This document shows positions 2,950 through 13,698 of a stretch of 32,635 nt of DNA, one piece after another. The notes beneath the pieces are model-generated. The model ran no database searches, was not told the origin of the DNA, and saw only the letters and a list, made by a program, of their open reading frames with translations. The stretch comes from a virus. Position numbers and translations under genes: made by a program. How positions within the stretch are numbered: position 1 is the first letter of the stretch; each line of letters starts with the position of its first letter. The DNA is taken from the UHGV virus genome UHGV-0186667. The stretch is one strand, 5' to 3'.

Positions 2950-3254
2950 GCCCCGGTGAACGCCTGAATGGACTTAATCACATTGCGGAGTTAAGGGCGA
3001 AAGTTTTTGGTCTGAATATTGAGTCAGAGCTTGAACGGTTTATTAAAGATATGCGTGATCCACGGGATATTAATAGCGAACAAAATAAACGGGCACTGGC
3101 TGCCATATTCTTTATGGCAAAAATTCCAGCTGAACGTCATAGCATCAGCATTAATGAGCTGACCACTGACGAAAAGCGGGAGTTGATTAAAGCAATGAAT
3201 CATTTTCGTGCAGTGGTGAGCTTATTTCCCAGACGGCTAACCATGCCGAATTAA
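2913..3254 (+). CDS. Hypothetical early protein
   Basis: 113-aa ORF in the early operon overlapping the previous ORF by 37 nt; no recognisable motif. Confidence 0.45.
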   Translation: MAIEGAAATVPLSPGERLNGLNHIAELRAKVFGLNIESELERFIKDMRDPRDINSEQNKRALAAIFFMAKIPAERHSISINELTTDEKRELIKAMNHFRAVVSLFPRRLTMPN

Positions 3255-3321
3255 CCAACTAATGAAATTAATGGCGTAAACCCGCCAGGCATCCCTTTAT
3301 CTAAATTCAGGAGAATTGATT

Positions 3322-3555
3322 ATGCGTAATATTGAAACCCTCACGACCAAAACCGGACCGGATGACGCAGGGCTTAATATTTTACTGACAGAGGCTCGTC
3401 TGGAAGAACGCCGGGCAAGGGCTGAAGCAATGGCAGCTCGCCTTGATAGCCTGGCGTGTCATATCACATCCCGCCAGCTAAACCACGTCGAAGCGGCAGA
3501 ACTGCTTCGTGTGACTGCTGAAGCAATCCAGAACGAAGCGCAGGAGATCCACTAA
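3322..3555 (+). CDS. Hypothetical early protein
   Basis: ATG at 3322 lies 8 nt after AGGAG (3309-3313); the ORF track begins at an upstream TTG (3316). Confidence 0.45.
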   Translation: MRNIETLTTKTGPDDAGLNILLTEARLEERRARAEAMAARLDSLACHITSRQLNHVEAAELLRVTAEAIQNEAQEIH

Positions 3556-3782
3556 TGGCTGATGCAATGGATCTCGTACAGCAGCGCGTTGAAGAAGAAC
3601 GCCAGCGTCATATCCGTGCTGCCCGTGCCAAAACGCCGGGCGTGTCCCGCGTGCTTTGCATTGAGTGTGAAGCGCCAATTCCGCCAGCACGCCGCCGTGC
3701 CATTCCGGGTGTGCAGCTTTGCATTACCTGTCAGGAAATCGCAGAGCTGAAAGGCAAACATTACAACGGAGGTGCTGTATGA
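3555..3782 (+). CDS. DksA/TraR-family C4 zinc-finger protein
   Basis: 75 aa with a four-cysteine motif CIECEAPIPPARRRAIPGVQLCITCQ, typical of TraR/DksA. Confidence 0.75.
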   Translation: MADAMDLVQQRVEEERQRHIRAARAKTPGVSRVLCIECEAPIPPARRRAIPGVQLCITCQEIAELKGKHYNGGAV

Positions 3783-4636
3783 GCACCATCCTGAAATGGG
3801 CGGGAAATAAAACTGCCATAATGTCAGAACTGAAAAAACACCTTCCTGCTGGCCCGCGACTGGTTGAACCTTTCGCGGGTTCCTGTGCTGTGATGATGGA
3901 GACGGATTACCCCAGCTATCTGGTTGCGGATATTAATCCTGATTTAATCAACCTCTATAAAAAGGTTGCCGCTGATTGTGAATCGTTTATATCGCGCGCC
4001 AGAGTTTTATTTGAGATCGCAAACAGGGAGGTGGCTTATTACAACATAAGGCAGGAGTTTAATTACTCCACTGAAATTACTGATTTCATGAAAGCGGTAT
4101 ATTTCCTGTATCTCAATCGTCACGGTTACCGTGGTTTATGTCGCTATAACAAGAGCGGGCATTTCAACATTCCCTACGGTAATTATAAAAATCCGTATTT
4201 CCCTGAAAAAGAAATTCGCGCATTTGCAGAAAAAGCCCAGCGGGCAACGTTTATCTGCGCCAGCTTTGATGAAACGCTGGCGATGTTGAAGGCGGGAGAT
4301 GTGGTGTATTGCGATCCGCCGTATGACGGCACGTTTTCCGGTTATCACACTGACGGCTTCACTGAAGATGACCAGTATCACCTGGCATCCGTTCTTGAAC
4401 ATCGGTCATCAGAAGGACATCCGGTCATTGTTTCTAACAGTGACACATCCCTGATCCGTTCGCTGTATCGCAATTTTACTCACCACTACATCAAGGCAAA
4501 ACGCAACATCGGTGTGGCAGCTGGCGAGGGTAAATCAGCAACAGAAATCATTGCTGTTTCCGGGCCGCGCTGCTGGGTGGGATTTGATTATTCGCGTAGC
4601 GTGGACAGTTCTGCCGTGTACGGAGTACGTGCATGA
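3779..4636 (+). CDS. dam: DNA adenine methyltransferase (Dam family)
   Basis: N-terminal ILKWAGNK motif, [15 protein letters not shown] block and DPPY catalytic motif (VYCDPPYDG) match E. coli Dam. Start ATG 3779 overlaps the upstream stop (ATGA). Confidence 0.85.
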
Positions 4637-7047
4637 GTCATGCCGATATGAACAACTGCTGCGGCTTTAACGAGGCTGCCGCAGCATTCTCATGGAACAG
4701 CCCGAAAAAAGCCATTAACCCTTATCTGGACCCGGCGGAAGTTGCGCCGGTTTCTGCGCTTTCAAACCTGATCACTCTGTACGCTGCCGATAACGAGCAG
4801 GAACAACTGCGCCGCGAGGCACTGAGTGATCAGGTCTGGGAGCGTTATTTCTTTAATGAATCCCGTGATCCTGTCCAGCGCGAAATGGAGCAGGATAAGC
4901 TAATTAGCCGGGCAAAGCTGGCGCATGAGCAGCAGCGTTTTAACCCGGACATGGTCATTCTGGCAGACGTCAGCGCCCAGCCCTCCCATATCAGCAAGCC
5001 GCTGATGCAACGTATTGAATACTTCAGCAGCCTGGGCAGGCCAAAGGCTTATTCCCGCTATTTACGTGAGACGATTAAGCCATGTCTGGAACGACTGGAG
5101 CATGTACGCGACAGCCAGCTATCTGCATCTTTTCGTTTTATGGCAAGCCATGTAGGGCTGGACGGCCTGCTGATTCTGCCTGAAATGAGTCAGGATCAGG
5201 TGAAACGCCTGTCTACCCTTGTCGCTGCGCATATGAGCATGTGCCTTGATGCAGCTTGTGGTGATTTGTATGCCACCGATGACGTTAAGCCAGAAGAAAT
5301 CCGCAAGACATGGGAAAAGGTGGCAGCGGAAACCCTGCGTCTGGATGTCATCCCGCCTGCGTTTGAGCAACTCCGCCGGAAAAGAAACCGCCGCAAACCT
5401 GTGCCCTATGAACTCATTCCGGGTTCGCTGGCGCGTATGCTGTGCGCCGACTGGTGGTATCGGAAATTATGGAAGATGCGTTGCGAATGGCGGGAAGAGC
5501 AGTTGCGTGCTGTCTGTCTGGTCAGCAAAAAAGCATCTCCCTATGTCAGCTATGAAGCCGTGATGCATAAACGTGAGCAGCGCCGCAAGTCACTGGAGTT
5601 TTTCCGTTCTCATGAACTGGTGAACGAAGAGGGCGACACGCTGGATATGGAAGACGTGGTAAACGCCAGCAGCAGCAACCCGGCGCACCGCCGCAATGAG
5701 ATGATGGCCTGTGTTAAAGGTCTGGAGCTTATCGCGGAAATGCGCGGTGACTGCGCCGTTTTCTACACCATTACCTGTCCGTCACGTTTCCATTCCACGC
5801 TCAATAACGGCAGACCAAACCCAACCTGGACAAATGCGACGGTAAGACAAAGCAGCGATTATCTGGTCGGCATGTTTGCTGCATTTCGTAAGGCGATGCA
5901 CAAAGCCGGGTTGCGCTGGTATGGCGTGCGGGTGGCTGAGCCGCATCATGACGGTACAGTTCACTGGCACCTGTTGTGTTTCATGCGCAAAAAAGACCGC
6001 CGCGCCATTACTGCATTGTTGCGTAAGTTTGCCATCCGTGAAGACCGCGAGGAACTGGGTAATAACACTGGTCCACGCTTTAAATCTGAGCTGATAAACC
6101 CGCGCAAAGGAACGCCGACAAGCTACATCGCGAAATACATCAGTAAGAACATTGACGGGCGTGGTCTGGCTGGCGAGATCAGCAAGGAAACGGGTAAATC
6201 CCTGCGTGATAACGCTGAATACGTTAATGCCTGGGCGTCTCTGCATCGTGTTCAGCAATTCCGCTTCTTTGGTATTCCGGGACGTCAGGCTTACCGTGAA
6301 CTTCGCTTGCTGGCTGGTCAGGCGGCAAGGCAACAGGGTGACAAAAAAGCAGGTGCGCCGGTACTGGATAACCCGCGTCTTGATGCCATTCTGGCTGCTG
6401 CTGATGCTGGTTGTTTTGCCACCTACATCATAAAGCAGGGCGGCGTACTGGTTCCCCGCAAATATCACCTCATCAGAACCGCTTATGAAATCAACGAAGT
6501 GCCAACCGCCTATGGCGATCACGGTATTCGTATTTATGGCATCTGGTCACCCATTGCAGAGGGCAAGATCTGCACTCATGCAGTGAAGTGGAAAATGGTT
6601 CGTAAGGCCGTTGACGTTCAGGAGGCGGCAGCCGACCAGGGCGCTTGCGCCCCTTGGACTCGTGGCAATAACTGTCCCCTTGCTGAAAATTTGTACCAAC
6701 AAGGGAAAGACAAATCAGCTGATGGGGATACCAGAACGGATATTACCCGCATGGATGACAAGGAATTGCACGATTACCTGCACAGTATGAACAAAAAAGA
6801 GCGCCGGGAACTGGCTGCAAGGTTACGCCTGGTGAAACCGAAACGGCGTAAAGACTACAAACAGCGAATTACAGACCATCAGCGACAGCAGCTCGTCTAT
6901 GAACTGAAGTCCAGAGGATTTGATGGCAGCGAGAAAGAGGTCGATTTACTCCTTCGCGGCGGCAGTATTCCGTCAGGAGCAGGCCTGCGTATCTTCTATC
7001 GGAACCAGCGTTTGCAGGAAGATGATAAGTGGCGAAACCTGTATTAA
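4633..7047 (+). CDS. A: Replication initiation protein A (rolling-circle HUH endonuclease)
   Basis: 804 aa. HUH-like motif VHWHLL and paired tyrosines YIAKYISK. Start overlaps the dam stop (ATGA). P2 gene A position. Confidence 0.85.
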
Positions 7048-7139
7048 TTACGCGGGTTAACAATTCGTGCTCTTAATAATACCAGGCATATCAGGCTGAT
7101 GAACGTAAAAAAACGTTTTACATCAGTAAGATTATTATA

Positions 7140-7159
7140 TACTGTAAATATAAACAGTG
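7140..7159. promoter_or_regulatory. LexA box (SOS operator)
   Basis: TACTGTAAATATAAACAGTG contains a perfect CTGT-N8-ACAG with an AT-rich spacer, 43 bp upstream of the ATG at 7200. Confidence 0.7.
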
Positions 7160-7199
7160 GTTATATTTACAGTATTGCTTTGGTGTCATAGGAGGAAAG

Positions 7200-7388
7200 A
7201 TGCAGGACTATTTTTTGGAGTCTTTGAAGCTCCAGCGCATTGATTTTTTTCTTAAGCTTGTAGCGGCTAGTGAGTGTAGTGATGAAGAGAAGGGGCTGGC
7301 TTTGCAGTGGGTTTCTGAACTAACAGATGAACTCATGGCAAAAATCAGAACCCACGAATACAACCGCTCAATGGATGTCATCAGTTGA
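7200..7388 (+). CDS. Hypothetical small protein, first gene of the SOS-controlled module
   Basis: 62-aa ORF with SD GGAGGA just upstream, directly after the LexA box; position equivalent to 186 tum. Confidence 0.45.
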   Translation: MQDYFLESLKLQRIDFFLKLVAASECSDEEKGLALQWVSELTDELMAKIRTHEYNRSMDVIS

Positions 7389-7399
7389 GGTGACTTTTT

Positions 7400-7633
7400 A
7401 TGCGCATTGAAATAATGATCGATAAAGAGCAGAAGATTAGCCAGTCTACCCTGGACGCCCTTGAATCCGAGCTTTACCGCAATCTGCGTCCTCTGTATCC
7501 CAAAATGGTAATTCGTATCCGCAAAGGTAGCTCTAACGGTGTGGAACTGACCGGATTGCAACTGGACGAAGAAAGAAAACAAGTGATGAAAATTATGCAG
7601 AAGGTGTGGGAAGACGACAGCTGGCTGCATTAA
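7400..7633 (+). CDS. DinI-family protein
   Basis: 77 aa. MRIEIMIDK...LDALESEL...VWEDDSWLH aligns by eye with E. coli DinI (MRIEVTIAK...IDALAGEL...TWESADDWF). Confidence 0.75.
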   Translation: MRIEIMIDKEQKISQSTLDALESELYRNLRPLYPKMVIRIRKGSSNGVELTGLQLDEERKQVMKIMQKVWEDDSWLH

Positions 7634-7903
7634 GAAACGTTGCTGGCGTCTGAACTTGCTTCTGGCGTCAGCAAGGTTGAACAACGAGCTATGCGAGGCG
7701 TTAGTGTCAATTTGTTACCTTAACCACTATATATGCCAGGAAATTAACAGTTCTTAAGAAACAGCTTGCATGATCGAGCGCATTGAACTTAAGTTTAAGT
7801 AACGCAATCAACAGATGATATTGTTGTCTAAATTTTAAAGATAATCTGTTGAGGTTGTAGGCGTCGGAGTGTAGACTTCCGCGCCATGTGAAAAGGGGGA
7901 GTT

Positions 7904-8119
7904 ATGTCAAGCATCGCCGCATTTAGCCTGGGTAACCCAGTTGAACGTCTGGCAAGGGTTCTTAAAGAGAACCAGGACAAACTCAATCTTAGTAAAGATG
8001 GTTTTGTGTCCGTAGACTTGTCTAACAAAAGAGCAATGGATGCCATCAAGGCACAGATGGATAAGCTTGAAGGCATCAAAACGAGCACTGTAAAAGAGAA
8101 AACTAATAGAACCAGATAA
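7904..8119 (+). CDS. Hypothetical small soluble protein, first gene of a two-gene cargo operon
   Basis: 71-aa ORF with strong SD AAGGGGGAG 4 nt upstream; its stop overlaps the next start (TAATG). No recognisable family. Confidence 0.5.
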   Translation: MSSIAAFSLGNPVERLARVLKENQDKLNLSKDGFVSVDLSNKRAMDAIKAQMDKLEGIKTSTVKEKTNRTR

Positions 8120-8961
8120 TGGCAACATTACTTTTAGCAGTGATTTTGGTTAGTGGTTTTATTTATGTAAACCTATCACTTTCAACAAGATACCGATATA
8201 AGCGTTCCAACGGCTGGGACGCTTATTTTTTTGTGGCTGCCTGGGGTATCGTTTTTTTTCTCCTTGGCGGTTTTTTCACCTTTATTTTGAACGTCAGCGG
8301 AGGGTTTCGTTGGCTGGCTAATGCCTTGAATCTAACACCTGACAGTTTTAATGGCATGTTGTCTTCATCGAAAGACAAACTTCAAAGAATAAATGAAATC
8401 AAACAGATAGCATGGGTTATGATTTCAATTGTCCTCGCTGCGATTTCAGGTTTTGGAAATAAGTTACGCACATCACGTGGAGATCGTCGTTGGGATGCCT
8501 TAGCTAAAGCTGTGGGTAATAACGCTTTCGAATCATTACTCATGGAAGCGTCCGCAAGACAGTTTCCGATCATAGCAACTCTGTCGTCTCGCAAAATCTA
8601 TGTTGGTCTTGTTACTTGTCCGGCGTTAGAAAACGGGCTTTCAGAGCACCTTGAACTTCTCCCGATGTTAAGCGGATATCGGGATAAAGATGATCTAACG
8701 ATTAGTATCACGACTAACTATCACCAACATTATCTTGATAGTGGTGTGATAAGTGGAATGTCTCGGCTTAATATCGAAGATTTCCGTGTGCTCATACCAA
8801 AAGATGAGGTTGAAACAATTTCGTTTTTTGATACTGAGACATATAACAAATTTAAAGAAAATGAAGCCAGGGATAGAAAGAACTGTCGAAAGATTGATAG
8901 TAAAAGTGCATCTTCGCGCAGCAAGCGTGCAGCAGATGCTGAGTCAAATGATCGTGCATGA
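8119..8961 (+). CDS. Hypothetical membrane protein with three predicted TM helices and a soluble C-terminal domain
   Basis: 280 aa. Hydrophobic segments at about aa 3-19, 35-57 and 96-112; C-terminal ~170 aa soluble with a basic tail. Visibly AT-rich compared with phage core genes. Confidence 0.6.
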   Translation: MATLLLAVILVSGFIYVNLSLSTRYRYKRSNGWDAYFFVAAWGIVFFLLGGFFTFILNVSGGFRWLANALNLTPDSFNGMLSSSKDKLQRINEIKQIAWVMISIVLAAISGFGNKLRTSRGDRRWDALAKAVGNNAFESLLMEASARQFPIIATLSSRKIYVGLVTCPALENGLSEHLELLPMLSGYRDKDDLTISITTNYHQHYLDSGVISGMSRLNIEDFRVLIPKDEVETISFFDTETYNKFKENEARDRKNCRKIDSKSASSRSKRAADAESNDRA

Positions 8962-9078
8962 CTATGCTGCATGAGATCGCATGATCGTTTGAGGATCGTT
9001 TTTGCTAGGGCCCGCCAGAACTGGCGGGCTTTCGCGTAGATCATGCACCTGCATGAAAACTACTACATAAAGCGGGCA

Positions 9079-9097
9079 GGCGTGGCGGGGATACGAG
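9079..9097. other. Candidate cos (cohesive-end) site
   Basis: GGCGTGGCGGGGATACGAG shares its first 13 nt with the 19-nt cohesive end of phage 186 as I remember it (GGCGTGGCGGGGAAAGCAT). Lies between hairpins and a 16-bp palindrome. Confidence 0.3.
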
Positions 9098-9198
9098 CGC
9101 GCGCAACAGTGTAACAATCTGGATCTAATGTGATATAGTTACTGTAAATATTATTAACTATTCTTATATGCATTATTAAATATTTTAATGGAGCGTTT

Positions 9199-10872
9199 AT
9201 GGAAAAATATCAAGATGAGGAATATGTAGATGATTTAACTGAGCGTGTTTTTCTCATTAAGCAACAACTGGAAGCGGGAAAACTAAAAATAGCTCATCAT
9301 CTTGTAGAAGGTTTTATTGAAAGTTTTAAAAGAATAAGGCTGCGACAGGATGGTAAAGTTGACCCTTCTACTGTTGATGGCAGAATAAGGGCTATGGGAG
9401 CAGCGGTTAATCACTTTTTAGAAAGAGAAGATATAAAAAACAAATACTCTATTCAGGACTTGCAAAGTTCTTACTTTAATATTCTTTTTAGTAATTTTGG
9501 CGAGTTGTTTTATCTGATGAAAAAAACTAATGCAACGCCACATAAAGCATCAAGTTTTTTTTCTCAACAAGAAGAATATGTTAAGCAAATAGAAGATATT
9601 TTTCCTGAGTTATATAATCAGGTAATAGAGTTTTGGCAGGTAACATCCGATATTGGTGTAATACATTTGCAGGATGGTTCTCAGTTTAAAGCTAATTTTT
9701 CTGGTGACTTATTTCCTGCATTTGATGAGAATGCTGTCTCTATTGCAGGGTTGTATGTTGATACTATTTCACTTCCATGTCCTATATTAAGAGTCGGTCG
9801 TCTCTATGAAAAGTCAGATAAGGCTGAGTTTACAAGGATACTTCTGAAGCATGTCCTAACATGTATGACATATAAAGAAGTAGCGCTTGAAGATATAGAG
9901 CCAGCAATAGTATTAATTTTGCCGGATAGAAGAGATTTTGAAACTGAGAGCAAAAAAAATTTGATGAGTTTTTGTGAGCCTTATGCTCTGACTCATGCGC
10001 AATATCTCTATGATCGACGGTTCGAAAGCTACGATGAATTTCGAGATTTTAGTTATTCGATGAATGATATTGATGCTGTTCTTAAAAATATTAAGAGAGC
10101 AGATAGACTTATTTTTGATACAGCATGGGGGCTAAATCCAAAAACTCAATTAGAAAAACTACTATCTGATAAAAAAAGAATATCACGTAATGTTGTTGGT
10201 GATCATGCTGGAATGGAGGTTTTCCTTTCCTGCATTGGAAGAATGCCGCAAGCCTATTCAGCAAAATGTAATGCACAAGAACTTGGTAGTACTCCATATA
10301 TAAATGCAGACACATCTTGGCTCTATTATACTTGGCTTATTGAGTACGAATCTCTTAATTTTGATGTCAATGATATTGAACTAAAAAATTTGCATATGGT
10401 TCATGCGTTATCTGCTGGTATGCAAGATGGTTTTTCATGGTTAGGAAATGTACCGGTCAATAAAATAATTGAGTTGAGACGTAACAAATTGATGGAGGAT
10501 GTAAGATCCATCTTATCAAATGGTGTTGACTCTTTAATCAATTCTTCGGCAGAGAGCTTTTCGAGGACAACGCAAAAAGTAATTGATAATGTAGACCGGG
10601 CTTTTATTGAACATCAAAGGATTCTTGCAAAAGCCCAAAAAGAGAAATTGAGAATTTACGGACTAGATGTCCTACCATGTATCGCAAATGGTGCTATAGC
10701 AATTGCTGGAGCGCTGACTGGCAATACTACTTTAACGGCGTTAAGTGCAGGCCTTGGAGTAATAGGTATTCCGAGTATTAGTGATATCAAATCTAAATTT
10801 AAGCAGAGGCAAGAGAAGCTTGATGCCTATCAACGTTCTGTTACAGGTATACTCTTTAGCCATAAATCTTAA
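9199..10872 (+). CDS. Hypothetical 557-aa cargo protein with C-terminal hydrophobic Gly/Ala-rich segment
   Basis: Long uninterrupted ORF, strongly AT-rich, SD GGAG 5 nt upstream. No Walker A, no YxDD, no recognisable catalytic motif. C-terminal stretch IANGAIAIAGALTGNTTLTALSAGLGVIGIPSI looks membrane-inserting. Confidence 0.7.
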   Translation: MEKYQDEEYVDDLTERVFLIKQQLEAGKLKIAHHLVEGFIESFKRIRLRQDGKVDPSTVDGRIRAMGAAVNHFLEREDIKNKYSIQDLQSSYFNILFSNFGELFYLMKKTNATPHKASSFFSQQEEYVKQIEDIFPELYNQVIEFWQVTSDIGVIHLQDGSQFKANFSGDLFPAFDENAVSIAGLYVDTISLPCPILRVGRLYEKSDKAEFTRILLKHVLTCMTYKEVALEDIEPAIVLILPDRRDFETESKKNLMSFCEPYALTHAQYLYDRRFESYDEFRDFSYSMNDIDAVLKNIKRADRLIFDTAWGLNPKTQLEKLLSDKKRISRNVVGDHAGMEVFLSCIGRMPQAYSAKCNAQELGSTPYINADTSWLYYTWLIEYESLNFDVNDIELKNLHMVHALSAGMQDGFSWLGNVPVNKIIELRRNKLMEDVRSILSNGVDSLINSSAESFSRTTQKVIDNVDRAFIEHQRILAKAQKEKLRIYGLDVLPCIANGAIAIAGALTGNTTLTALSAGLGVIGIPSISDIKSKFKQRQEKLDAYQRSVTGILFSHKS

Positions 10873-10878
10873 TGTAGA

Positions 10879-10907
10879 GGGCCGAGGTATTCGGCCCTTA
10901 GTTTTAT
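10879..10907. terminator. Hairpin terminator between the 557-aa gene and the portal gene
   Basis: GGGCCGA (10879-10885), loop GGTAT, TCGGCCC (10891-10897), then TTAGTTTTAT. The T-tract overlaps the portal stop codon. Confidence 0.45.
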
Positions 10908-11935
10908 ATGAAACTGTATGGCATGAATTTTATTATGTCATCTTTGAGCCATTTATTGAGTTCTTCTATTCTGTTTTGTAGCGGTATCAATTCATTACGC
11001 ATAAAAACCTTACTAGCCTTCTCCACATCCCCAAATCCCCCAACATTATTCGGCATTATCCCCATCATTTGCGGCGGCACTCGGTGTGCTGCCATCATGT
11101 CATCCCGGCTCACGTTCTTGATATTCAAAAATTCATCCTTTGCCGCGACTTCTGATAACGGGATGATTTGAAGCCCGTCCTTTTTGCCGTTAGGCGAGTA
11201 CATAAACAGATTGCGGAAGTTGCCTGGACCTTTGGCGCTTTTCATTGCGTTGCGGAGGTTGTTCACATCCTCCTGGTTCTGCGCGGTATCGGTCATGTAC
11301 ATGATGAAGCCTGCATGGCTGCCGTTGATGTAATACTTACGGCGGAACAGCGTGGCGGACTCGTTGAGCAGGGCTGACGGAATGGCAGAAAGATAGCCGG
11401 GCAGGCCGTAGATCTCCTGGTTAATGTCCGGTTCCATCAGATGAAAAATGCTGCCTTTCGTGAACTGATACGGCTGGGTTGTCATACCGTATTGCACAAA
11501 CCAGTAGGTATCCAGGTCTAACCCGCGTCGGGTGTATTTTGCCAGAGCAGGCTCAAGGGCGATAACTTCACCGAAGCGGTTCGTGCGTTTCTCCAGGTAG
11601 GCGTTACCAAATACCAGATAGTCCTGCACAAAACGTGAAAAAGCCTGCTGGCTGAGCAGCGGATGGGGGATGTAGGTACTGGTCAGAATGTTGCATTTCA
11701 CCGCAATTGGTGAACTGTGATGCACGGCGGCGCGGAAGGTGCGTGCCAGTCCGTCAAAGCTTACTGGCGGCTCATACCAGCGATCTGTCTGTACGCATTC
11801 CACATAGTCCAGTAGTTCGCGGCGGTCCAGAACAGGAACGGGATCACCGAAGCTGAATGCTTCGGCTGTAGTTTGACTTTTATGCTGGATCTGGTTCGTC
11901 GACGCAGCGCGGTTCTTCTTACTCTTTCCCATCAA
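10904..11935 (-). CDS. Q: Portal protein (P2 gpQ)
   Basis: 343 aa (P2 Q is about 344), minus strand, immediately downstream of the terminase gene. Confidence 0.85.
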   Translation of the reverse strand: MMGKSKKNRAASTNQIQHKSQTTAEAFSFGDPVPVLDRRELLDYVECVQTDRWYEPPVSFDGLARTFRAAVHHSSPIAVKCNILTSTYIPHPLLSQQAFSRFVQDYLVFGNAYLEKRTNRFGEVIALEPALAKYTRRGLDLDTYWFVQYGMTTQPYQFTKGSIFHLMEPDINQEIYGLPGYLSAIPSALLNESATLFRRKYYINGSHAGFIMYMTDTAQNQEDVNNLRNAMKSAKGPGNFRNLFMYSPNGKKDGLQIIPLSEVAAKDEFLNIKNVSRDDMMAAHRVPPQMMGIMPNNVGGFGDVEKASKVFMRNELIPLQNRIEELNKWLKDDIIKFMPYSFI

Positions 11936-13698
11936 AAAATCTCCACAATATTACTGGTATTGGCGGACTCGCCCTGCAGTGGTTCGTTAAACAGTGCGTG
12001 CATTGTTGCCCAGGCCAGATCGGCGTGGCTGGCTTCTTCGCTGCGGCTGGCTTCATAGGTCGGGCGGTTGCCGCTGGCGGTGGTGGCGCGACGGATTGCC
12101 ATGAATGACTGCGCAATGTCGGTGTGCCCGGCGTCAAACTCCAGACGGCGGTGGCTGATAATGTCGTAGGCCTTGAGCACCAGGGCGTTTTTAACGTTGG
12201 GGTTGTAGACAAACTCCCGGACGGCAGGAAAGAATGCTTTCACGTTCTCGTAAACCCCGTGACCAACGCCGGTTGAGTCGATACCGATATAAGTCACGTT
12301 GTACTGTTCGGTCAGTTTTTTGATGGCGTCAGCCTGAGCGCGGAAGTCCATCCCGCGCCACTGGTGACGCTCAAGAATGCGGAATTTACCGCCCGGTACG
12401 GCTGGCGGTGCCACCACCACGCATCCGGCACTGTCGCCGTTCTGAGTACCTTTTGCGGGGTCATAACCGATCCATACTTCGCGCCAGCCAAACGGGCGCA
12501 GGGCCAGTGCATGAAAGTCGGTCCAGATTTCCCAGCTGTCCACCATGCACGCCTGCAGTTCGCTGAGCGGGAACACGGACGCGAGATCGTCCACGAACTC
12601 GCACATCAGCAGGTTCTGGTATTCGTCCGGGCTGTACTCCATGCGCAGCTGGTCGAGGTCGAACAGGTTACAGCCGCCGCGCACCGCATCTTCCACGGTG
12701 ACTATCTGGCGGTATTGCCCGTCTGCGCACAGCAGGCCGGGGGCCAGATTGCTGTGGGACAGGTCGATGTCCACCTTGTCAGCTTTGTTGCGTCCACGGT
12801 TGAACAGCGCACCGGACCAGAACGGATAAGCACTGTGGGTCAGGCTGGATGGCGTGGAAAAATAGGTTTGTCGCCATTTCTTGTGAATAGCCATCCCGGA
12901 AGCCACTTTGCGCAGCTCCTGGAATTTCGGGATCCAGAAATATTCATCCAGATACAGGTTGCCGTGGTAACTCTGGGCCGTGCGGGCATTGGTTCCGAGG
13001 AAGTAAAGCGTGGCCCCATTAGGAAGCACCATCGGATCGCCTTTCAGCTCCACCTCCACTTCTTTGGCGAAGTCGATGATGTACTGCTTAAAGACGTGGG
13101 CCTGTGCCTTGCTGGCGGAAAGGAAAATCTGGTTACGCCCGGTTAGCAGGGCGTCAATCAGGGCTTCACGGGCAAAATAGAAGGTCGCGCCGATCTGGCG
13201 TGACTTCAGCAGGTTGCGGATGCGGTTGGTTTTTCCGGCTTCCCACCAGTGGCGCTGGTAGTTGAACATGGAGGAATGGAAGATTTCTTCCAGCTTCTCA
13301 ATCTGTTCATCGGTGAAAACGTTCTTTTCCGGCTGACGGCGCGGGCCTTTGTTGCGGTTGGCGACGTTAGGGTTTAAGTCGGCTTCGTTGCCGCCATTGT
13401 TAAACTTGCCGATCCGCGCATGGCGCTCCGACTGGCGCGCCAGCAGGTCAATCTCTTTGAAATCTTTCCCTTCTTTGTGCTCCTTCATAATGAGCTGGCA
13501 GTAGCGTGCGGCGGTGGTGAGCTGCATCTGATCCAGCGGCCCATAGTCACCCCACTTGTCGCGTTTTTTCCAGCTGTGAACGGTTGCAACTTTCTCGCCC
13601 AGCATTTCAGCAATGCGGGCTACGCGGTATCCCTGAAAGTACAGCAGCATGGCCTGCCGACGGGGATCGAGATCTGCGGGTGTCAGTGTGGTGTTCAT
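11932..13698 (-). CDS. P: Terminase large subunit, ATPase (P2 gpP)
   Basis: 588 aa (P2 P is about 590), minus strand, divergent from the capsid operon. Confidence 0.85.
   Translation of the reverse strand: MNTTLTPADLDPRRQAMLLYFQGYRVARIAEMLGEKVATVHSWKKRDKWGDYGPLDQMQLTTAARYCQLIMKEHKEGKDFKEIDLLARQSERHARIGKFNNGGNEADLNPNVANRNKGPRRQPEKNVFTDEQIEKLEEIFHSSMFNYQRHWWEAGKTNRIRNLLKSRQIGATFYFAREALIDALLTGRNQIFLSASKAQAHVFKQYIIDFAKEVEVELKGDPMVLPNGATLYFLGTNARTAQSYHGNLYLDEYFWIPKFQELRKVASGMAIHKKWRQTYFSTPSSLTHSAYPFWSGALFNRGRNKADKVDIDLSHSNLAPGLLCADGQYRQIVTVEDAVRGGCNLFDLDQLRMEYSPDEYQNLLMCEFVDDLASVFPLSELQACMVDSWEIWTDFHALALRPFGWREVWIGYDPAKGTQNGDSAGCVVVAPPAVPGGKFRILERHQWRGMDFRAQADAIKKLTEQYNVTYIGIDSTGVGHGVYENVKAFFPAVREFVYNPNVKNALVLKAYDIISHRRLEFDAGHTDIAQSFMAIRRATTASGNRPTYEASRSEEASHADLAWATMHALFNEPLQGESANTSNIVEIF

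Follow-up and report, generated by a model that had tools for sequence, protein, structure and literature searches.

The locus

The viral genome UHGV-0186667, a stretch of 32,635 nucleotides referred to here in its full length as the window, is a P2-like prophage. Between its gpA and portal genes it carries a gene for a protein of 557 amino acids (aa), identical to WP_024235280.1 and labelled 'hypothetical protein' in RefSeq. Profile comparisons and structural models indicate that most of this protein is a remote homologue of DitB, one of the two proteins of the Aditi defence system, and the gene is described here as a stand-alone, Aditi-related defence candidate. The features of the gene and its expression signals are as follows.

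9111..9139, plus strand: promoter-like sigma-70 site, GTAACA-17-TATAGT with an upstream TG, in the AT-rich leader (consensus scan only)
9190..9193, plus strand: Shine-Dalgarno sequence GGAG, 5 nt ahead of the ATG, read from the sequence
9199..10872, plus strand: coding sequence of the solo DitB-like (Aditi-related) protein, 557 aa (open reading frame (ORF) call, ATG start)
9217..9444, plus strand: N-terminal three-helix domain, aa ~7-82 (AlphaFold2 (AF2) helices 7-25, 33-45 and 61-82)
9448..10662, plus strand: DitB-homologous alpha/beta core and stalk helix, aa ~84-488 (PADLOC, hidden Markov model (HMM), hhalign, AF2)
10663..10776, plus strand: uncharged, Gly/Ala/Thr-rich hydrophobic helical hairpin, aa 489-526, LDVLPCIANGAIAIAGALTGNTTLTALSAGLGVIGIPS
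10777..10869, plus strand: basic amphipathic helix and conserved C-terminal P/T-G-h-L-F motif, aa 527-557 (alignment)
10877..10899, plus strand: intrinsic-terminator hairpin between the converging 557-aa and portal genes (10-bp stem, 6 GC pairs, T-run)

The initial annotation, made from the sequence alone, had described the gene as the most AT-rich of the window, with an AT-rich upstream region and a hairpin terminator of its own, and this description holds. The ORF is real, and the lowest GC content of the window (0.34-0.35 across 9501-10500) falls within it. The gene as a whole has a GC content of 35% (0.353) and a GC content at third codon positions (GC3) of 25% (0.246), while gpA, portal and terminase have GC3 values of 0.56-0.71. 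The terminator hairpin folds with -16.8 kcal/mol (z=-3.6), and none of 200 shuffles folds equally well. The leader contains the ribosome-binding site and the promoter-like site; sites of the latter kind are not enriched relative to shuffles, so its assignment is weak. Searches of the protein against Pfam, NCBIfam and PHROG gave no significant family, and neither an Rfam RNA nor a tandem repeat was found near the gene.

Homology to DitB

Aditi (system SG143) is an experimentally validated defence system (Millman et al. 2022). A PADLOC search, which the initial annotation had named as a check, matches the 557-aa protein to DitB (PADLOC PDLC03827) with E=7.3e-10, aligning aa 195-452 with profile positions 95-344 of 361. 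The proteins of the validated S. kuerlensis system were taken from Table S2 of Millman et al., DitB homologues were collected, and profiles were built. The resulting DitB HMM detects 207 of 269 family members at E<10 and 32 at E<1e-3, always collinearly, and the family HMM in turn matches every one of the 35 DitB proteins. As controls, the best shuffled sequence reached E=2.1 and the best reversed sequence E=0.023. With hhalign, comparing a profile with single DitB sequences is uninformative and a diverse profile is needed. A profile of 84 divergent members, which are 22-44% identical to the 557-aa protein, pairs target positions 84-379 with DitB 10-272 at a probability of 95.9% (E=5.3e-9). 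PADLOC finds DitB matches in 29 of these 84 members. The hhalign alignments pair invariant IQxxY with LQxEY, FW with FW, ILP with ILP, Q with Q, and the P of TPxI with the P of IPYI.

The AF2 models point in the same direction. The model of the 557-aa protein (predicted local distance difference test score (pLDDT) 81.3, predicted template modelling score (pTM) 0.73) and that of DitB (pLDDT 88.8, pTM 0.87) have the order of helices and all four beta-strands in common, three of the strands lying at an offset of exactly +100. The alignment of their secondary structures reaches z=6.6 against controls of shuffled DitB elements. Based on these profiles and models, aa ~84-488 are assigned as a remote, not a family-level, homologue of full-length DitB, corresponding to DitB ~5-367 and thus to nearly all of it. 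Neither domain has an assigned function, and both occur in defence contexts.

There are also differences. DitB proteins measure 355-385 aa, typically ~360-372 aa, and consist of the core only, whereas the 557-aa protein adds the three-helix domain at its N-terminus and a stalk, hairpin and tail at its C-terminus. The validated Aditi system comes from Firmicutes, while the protein described here resides in proteobacterial mobile elements. No DitA gene lies adjacent: PADLOC detects no DitA-like protein in the hotspot of the window, no neighbour is conserved in 22 loci of the family, and hhalign of the family profile and of an N-terminal extension domain of ~190 aa found in longer members against DitA gives probabilities of at most 0.2%. 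As DitA is missing and the architecture differs, the protein is better regarded as a new variant than as a member of Aditi as defined. The homology backs a role in defence and gives no mechanism, because the mechanism of Aditi has not been described; literature searches on the protein accession and on the Aditi mechanism found nothing.

Domain architecture

The N-terminal helical region noticed in the initial annotation is confirmed by the AF2 helices. In 30 of the 84 divergent members, these ~80 residues match the PADLOC model of Avs1C, the third gene of AVAST type 1 (PDLC02160), with a best E of 5e-7, while the 557-aa protein itself gives no match to this model at E<=0.01. Unlike this domain, Avs1C is a small free-standing protein accompanied by a nuclease and a protease-STAND sensor, and all of these components are absent here. 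The AVAST type 1 paper describes no function for Avs1C (PMC12799240).

The core ends in a long helix (aa 454-488) and is followed by the hairpin, which has only one charged residue among 38. AF2 places helices at 491-507 and 510-521 with a pLDDT of 46-56. The hydrophobic character is kept throughout the family, 194 of 202 members having a Kyte-Doolittle peak over 19 residues (KD19) of 1.2 or more (median 1.7), and DitB has no hydrophobic C-terminal segment. Low pLDDT together with family-wide conservation is consistent with a module that is unpacked from the soluble core. The Gly/Ala-rich hydrophobic stretch proposed initially is therefore present and conserved; its position has to be corrected from aa ~505-540 to aa 489-526, and its hydrophobicity is no more than moderate (KD19 maximum 1.62; sum of +4.3 kcal/mol for the best 19-mer on the Hessa translocon scale). 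It is not a canonical transmembrane (TM) helix of the kind found in TM abortive-infection effectors, and is more suggestive of a hairpin that is interfacial, re-entrant or inserted on induction, or else of an oligomerisation element.

In the C-terminal tail, G550 and F553 are invariant in one of the alignments (A1), and the P/T-G-h-L-F motif extends to the divergent members. At least 90% conservation among the latter is seen at 26 positions, including Q89, Y92, H156, K164, D188, T189, R348, S373, R427, R436 and N464. The conserved residues of the family match no recognised catalytic signature. Three other similarities were considered and rejected. A sequence profile compared with all PDB chains gave chance matches only, the best being the stalk/TM region of haemagglutinin (E=0.036). 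A likeness to LeoBC of Eleos (E=0.0046) was attributed to chance, as 1 of 84 members matches and Pfam finds no GTPase or P-loop. The segment DRAFIEH was discarded as a HEPN Rx4-6H motif since its Arg is not conserved in the alignment.

Family and distribution

The label 'orphan' in the initial annotation proved wrong. A word-indexed search yields more than 212 homologues of 553-562 aa from Enterobacterales, Aeromonas, Aquitalea, Electronema and metagenomes, with no annotation other than hypothetical. An exhaustive profile search extends the family to 763 clusters (50% identity) at E<=1e-3, 263 of them at E<=1e-30, with a common length and architecture across several phyla (Proteobacteria, Bacteroidota and others). 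A genome scan added members from Burkholderiales, Pseudomonas, Hyphomicrobium, Balneolaceae and Chitinophagaceae.

Within its own host the gene is scarce. It occurs at >=99% identity in 17 of 5426 complete E. coli genomes, 1230 of which contain a related P2-type portal gene, and no homologue of the protein was found in 80 IMG/VR viral contigs bearing the cos core (L034-L113). Given these numbers, the gene is rare, variable cargo. Conservation at this position across P2-like phages, which the initial annotation had held to speak against its proposal, is thus not observed.

The P2 hotspot and the cos element

The gene lies in the cos-proximal interval between gpA and the portal gene gpQ, which is an experimentally established defence hotspot of P2-like phages (PMC9122126; also PMC9519451, PMC13586616). 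The following features delimit it in the window.

4633-7047: gpA (PF05840; Pfam)
9041..9106, plus strand: conserved cos element with core GGCGTGGCGGGG at 9079-9090, directly upstream of the 557-aa gene and the boundary between the hotspot halves
10904-11935, minus strand: portal gene (PF04860; Pfam), abutting the 557-aa gene
11932-13698, minus strand: large terminase gene

The gene belongs to this hotspot by its location between gpA and portal, next to cos, and by its variable presence. The cos call at 9079 is correct: the P2/186-type core occurs once in the window and in none of 100 shuffles, and a block of ~75 bp around it is kept in two other P2/P4-type elements, the Serratia P2-like prophage L002 and the island L010, with homology stopping just beyond. 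It is also true, as initially stated, that classical P2 has no gene here, since the cosL-Q interval of reference P2 spans ~170 bp and is geneless; reference P2 carries its cargo (orf91, tin, old) between gpA and cos. In 54 P2-like contigs of the IMG/VR sample, cos and the portal stop are separated by distances with a bimodal distribution: 163-240 bp in 20 contigs (the empty, P2-like state) and 1.15-4.4 kb in 25, with another 9 in between at 390-685 bp. The distance from gpA to cos in the cos contigs ranges from 0.48 to 4.1 kb. This spread shows that P2 hotspots carry cargo on both sides of cos. The position between cos and Q is accordingly less remarkable than the initial annotation implied, as about half of the sampled P2-like phages have cargo there.

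Table S5 of Rousset et al. 2022 includes the exact protein WP_024235280 as an unannotated 'hypothetical' (PMC9122126). More than one third of the hotspot systems cloned in that study were active, and about two thirds were inactive on the panel used (PMC9122126). The gene resembles old and tin of P2 in being non-essential, AT-rich, independently transcribed and variable cos-proximal cargo of a P2-like prophage. It has no sequence or domain similarity to them, Old being an ATPase-TOPRIM nuclease, and it differs from both in lying on the Q side of cos.

The hotspot block 6800-10800 is 100% identical to E. coli 210221272 (L001, NZ_CP016404.1), while the flanks are 93-98% identical (gpA 3200-6800, portal/terminase 10800-13200) and identity returns to 100% from ~13200. 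This mosaic pattern of identity fits a recombinational exchange around the hotspot. Directly after gpA, at 7200-7633, are a 62-aa ORF (phrog_698) and a DinI-like gene (PF06183, E=5e-23). The same two proteins head many differing hotspot arrangements in Table S5 of Rousset et al. (PMC9122126), and they behave as a semi-conserved hotspot leader and not as variable cargo.

Neighbourhoods of the homologues

Several homologues are located in comparable settings. A Serratia homologue (46% identical) occupies the same slot between cos and portal in another P2-like prophage, beside an AAA_15/AAA_21 pair. The Aquitalea homologue belongs to a Tn7-like element and is flanked by a UvrD and HNH pair and a GajA/GajB-type pair, a homologue on a metagenomic contig adjoins a reverse transcriptase gene, and those of Aeromonas and L010 sit in integrase islands. 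PARIS-type genes are also found beside family members in other mobile elements. Over 22 loci, the recurrent neighbours are defence ATPases and helicases (GajA, Old, AriA, PtuA and GajB types) and reverse transcriptases, in addition to mobile-element genes (Psu, P4-type primase, portal, gpA, TrwB). Among the 100 neighbouring ORFs of these loci, no Pfam or PADLOC family occurs more than 4 times. The 557-aa gene is thus stand-alone, with no conserved partner.

The island L010 (GCA_033363915.1) contains an integrase gene, two DUF2971 genes and an Ogr/Delta gene, and no portal gene. Its homologue (L010:5794-7674, 47% identical) abuts the conserved cos element beside the Ogr/Delta gene. The island could represent the remnant of a prophage or a satellite of the P4 type, and the adjacency to cos indicates that the family tracks the cos-adjacent slot over different element types.

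The upstream gene pair

On the gpA side of cos, two further genes and a hairpin precede the 557-aa gene.

7904-8961: 71-aa ORF (phrog_9843) and 280-aa ORF (phrog_3630), with a stop/start overlap at 8119
9008-9031: GC-rich hairpin GGGCCCGCCAGAACTGGCGGGC followed by TTTC, past the 280-aa gene and just ahead of cos

Genuine TM helices are located at the N-terminus of the 280-aa protein (Hessa -1.8). In the P2 hotspots of Table S5 of Rousset et al., this pair appears repeatedly and in varying company, for example with SieB, and WP_024235280 is found both with and without it (PMC9122126). The pair looks like a separate candidate two-gene membrane module, and the hairpin at 9008-9031 is probably the terminator of the 280-aa gene, insulating the two halves of the hotspot.

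Proposed function and alternative explanations

On balance, the 557-aa gene is best explained as a moron-type, single-gene, Aditi-related defence candidate of the P2-like prophage. That it serves defence in some form, by whichever route, is probable, and a membrane mechanism leading to abortive infection is plausible, if doubtful. The initial proposal of a horizontally acquired, self-contained, single-gene defence candidate is backed by the hotspot location, the DitB homology, the missing partner in 22 loci and the rarity of the gene. The foreign composition, the ribosome-binding site and terminator of its own, and contexts of mobile-element cargo or defence islands argue in the same sense.

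According to this proposal, the lysogen would express the protein, which would act on its own against phages or mobile elements. It would consist of an Avs1C-related three-helix domain and a core, followed by the stalk helix, the flexible hairpin and, last, the amphipathic tail with its basic residues. The DitB-like core (aa ~84-488), cytoplasmic and equipped with conserved polar residues, would presumably perform the sensing or a biochemical step. In place of the absent DitA, the C-terminal module could target the inner membrane or insert into it on activation. The outcome might be membrane perturbation, and thus abortive infection, or an action at the site where phage DNA enters.

Membrane effectors of abortive infection include the TM effectors of CBASS, Pycsar and retrons, RexB, and hairpin pore formers such as the pore-forming colicins. 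An uncharged, Gly/Ala-rich hairpin of ~38 residues with basic flanks, carried on a soluble domain, has the shape expected of an inducible insertion element. No sequence or fold similarity to these effectors was detected, and the hairpin is too weak for a constitutive TM helix. A more specific version of the proposal, which is unlikely in all its details, would make the protein a single-polypeptide form of Aditi. DitA would be replaced by the Avs1C-like domain and an inducible, colicin-style hairpin, and infection would trigger release of the hairpin into the inner membrane and so abort the infection.

Several observations weigh against the proposed function or its membrane step. Identity to DitB is only 14-17%, hhalign with a narrow family profile gives a probability of 15.6% over 302 columns, and the polar residues invariant in DitB (H80, H90, D93, D94, D126, R260) are mostly not invariant in the family described here. 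Both Aditi proteins are without a known domain or a proposed mechanism. A Foldseek search with the target model returned no match (best E 0.92 on PDB and 0.67 on BFVD), and with its fold unmatched in both databases the protein offers no structural analogy to any effector. The best 19-mer of the hairpin, at the Hessa value given above, is far from the -1.8 of the TM helix in the neighbouring 280-aa protein; the family median is +3.9, and +2 or less is reached in only 4 of 202 members. The hairpin could be an oligomerisation or buried element instead of a membrane element. Finally, the cargo of the hotspot is not all defensive.

The last point leads to the possibility that the gene is non-defence cargo, such as a gene for counter-defence against a host or competitor system, a factor in fitness or lysogenic conversion, or a selfish toxin of the addiction type. 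The large inactive share of the systems cloned by Rousset et al. would agree with this (PMC9122126), as would a fold and conserved residues that match no known enzyme. It is nevertheless improbable in view of the DitB homology, the Avs1C-like N-terminus and the recurrence of the family next to known defence genes in mobile elements unrelated to one another, and a toxin of this type would be at odds with a single gene that has no antitoxin-like partner. Superinfection exclusion without abortion is rated just as low. Here, the hairpin would hold the protein at the inner membrane, where it would block DNA entry or an early step in a Sie- or Imm-like manner, and the host would survive. Such a role would suit a prophage moron with its own expression signals, and the conserved hairpin, bordered by basic residues at either end, is suggestive of a monotopic anchor that leaves most of the protein in the cytoplasm. 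Moreover, SieB is an alternative cargo of the same locus in the table of Rousset et al. (PMC9122126). It fits poorly with family members in Tn7-like elements, in integrase islands and beside classical intracellular defence systems, with the homology to DitB, which has no membrane module, and with a hairpin too weakly hydrophobic on the Hessa scale for a stable anchor.

The 557-aa gene might also form a multi-gene system with the 71/280-aa membrane-protein pair across cos. The three genes share one low-GC block that matches E. coli 210221272 as a whole at 100% identity, and the TM helices of the 280-aa protein are real. This arrangement is very unlikely, because Table S5 contains loci with the 557-aa gene and no pair as well as the pair with other cargo such as SieB, the homologues of Serratia, Aeromonas, Aquitalea and elsewhere lack the pair, and both the terminator-like hairpin at 9008-9031 and cos stand between the genes. 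A morphogenesis or packaging accessory linked to cos and portal would explain the immediate neighbourhood of the gene to cos (three elements) and to the portal gene (two). Its distribution effectively refutes this role: the gene is absent from reference P2, from the 80 cos contigs and from ~99% of the E. coli genomes with a related portal gene, and the family is present in non-phage elements. Likewise, the homology to a virion or morphogenesis protein that the initial annotation had named as counter-evidence did not emerge, either from PHROG or as a fold match in BFVD.

A hypothetical gene of a P2 hotspot was already to be expected as a defence candidate. New are the large unannotated family linked to DitB, the architecture that is independent of DitA, and the unmatched fold. 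Aditi is among the few validated defence systems with neither a recognisable domain nor a proposed mechanism, and the family of 763 clusters occurs without DitA and comes with a built-in candidate for the effector or targeting function. Should the E. coli gene prove protective against phage, the catalogue of the P2 hotspot would gain a new single-gene system, and Aditi-like systems could be detected well past the reach of current models. It would also provide an easy genetic model of the DitB fold, with one gene, its native host and conserved residues to mutate. If the single-polypeptide version is true, a single gene native to E. coli would for the first time make the workings of the mechanistically opaque Aditi/DitB fold tractable. 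If the gene does not protect, it would be merely another unexplained hotspot gene.

Longer members and further copies

An N-terminal extension domain of ~190 aa recurs in members of 704-748 aa (P0198, P0225, P0233, P0239, P0240, P0245, P0247, P0252, P0262 and P0265), with 30-47% mutual identity and the motifs LWD.A.W.G, PPFLGL.F, IRI.IIEG, GYTVH.GTN and R.HRM.P. The domain has no annotation in Pfam or PADLOC and no relation to DitA or DitB, and consequently these fusions yield no functional clue.

Copies 99.6-99.7% identical to the gene are present in NZ_CP019275.1/CP019275.1, a 37,446-bp record of E. coli 13P477T, and in NZ_CP023371.1, where they are annotated as two hypothetical proteins. 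A 1801-bp query matched 1802 bp, and tblastn aligned the protein in two pieces, which suggests a frameshifted copy in these records. The 37-kb 'plasmid' record of 13P477T resembles a P2-like phage genome that was deposited as a replicon of its own, in addition to the copy on the chromosome of this strain.

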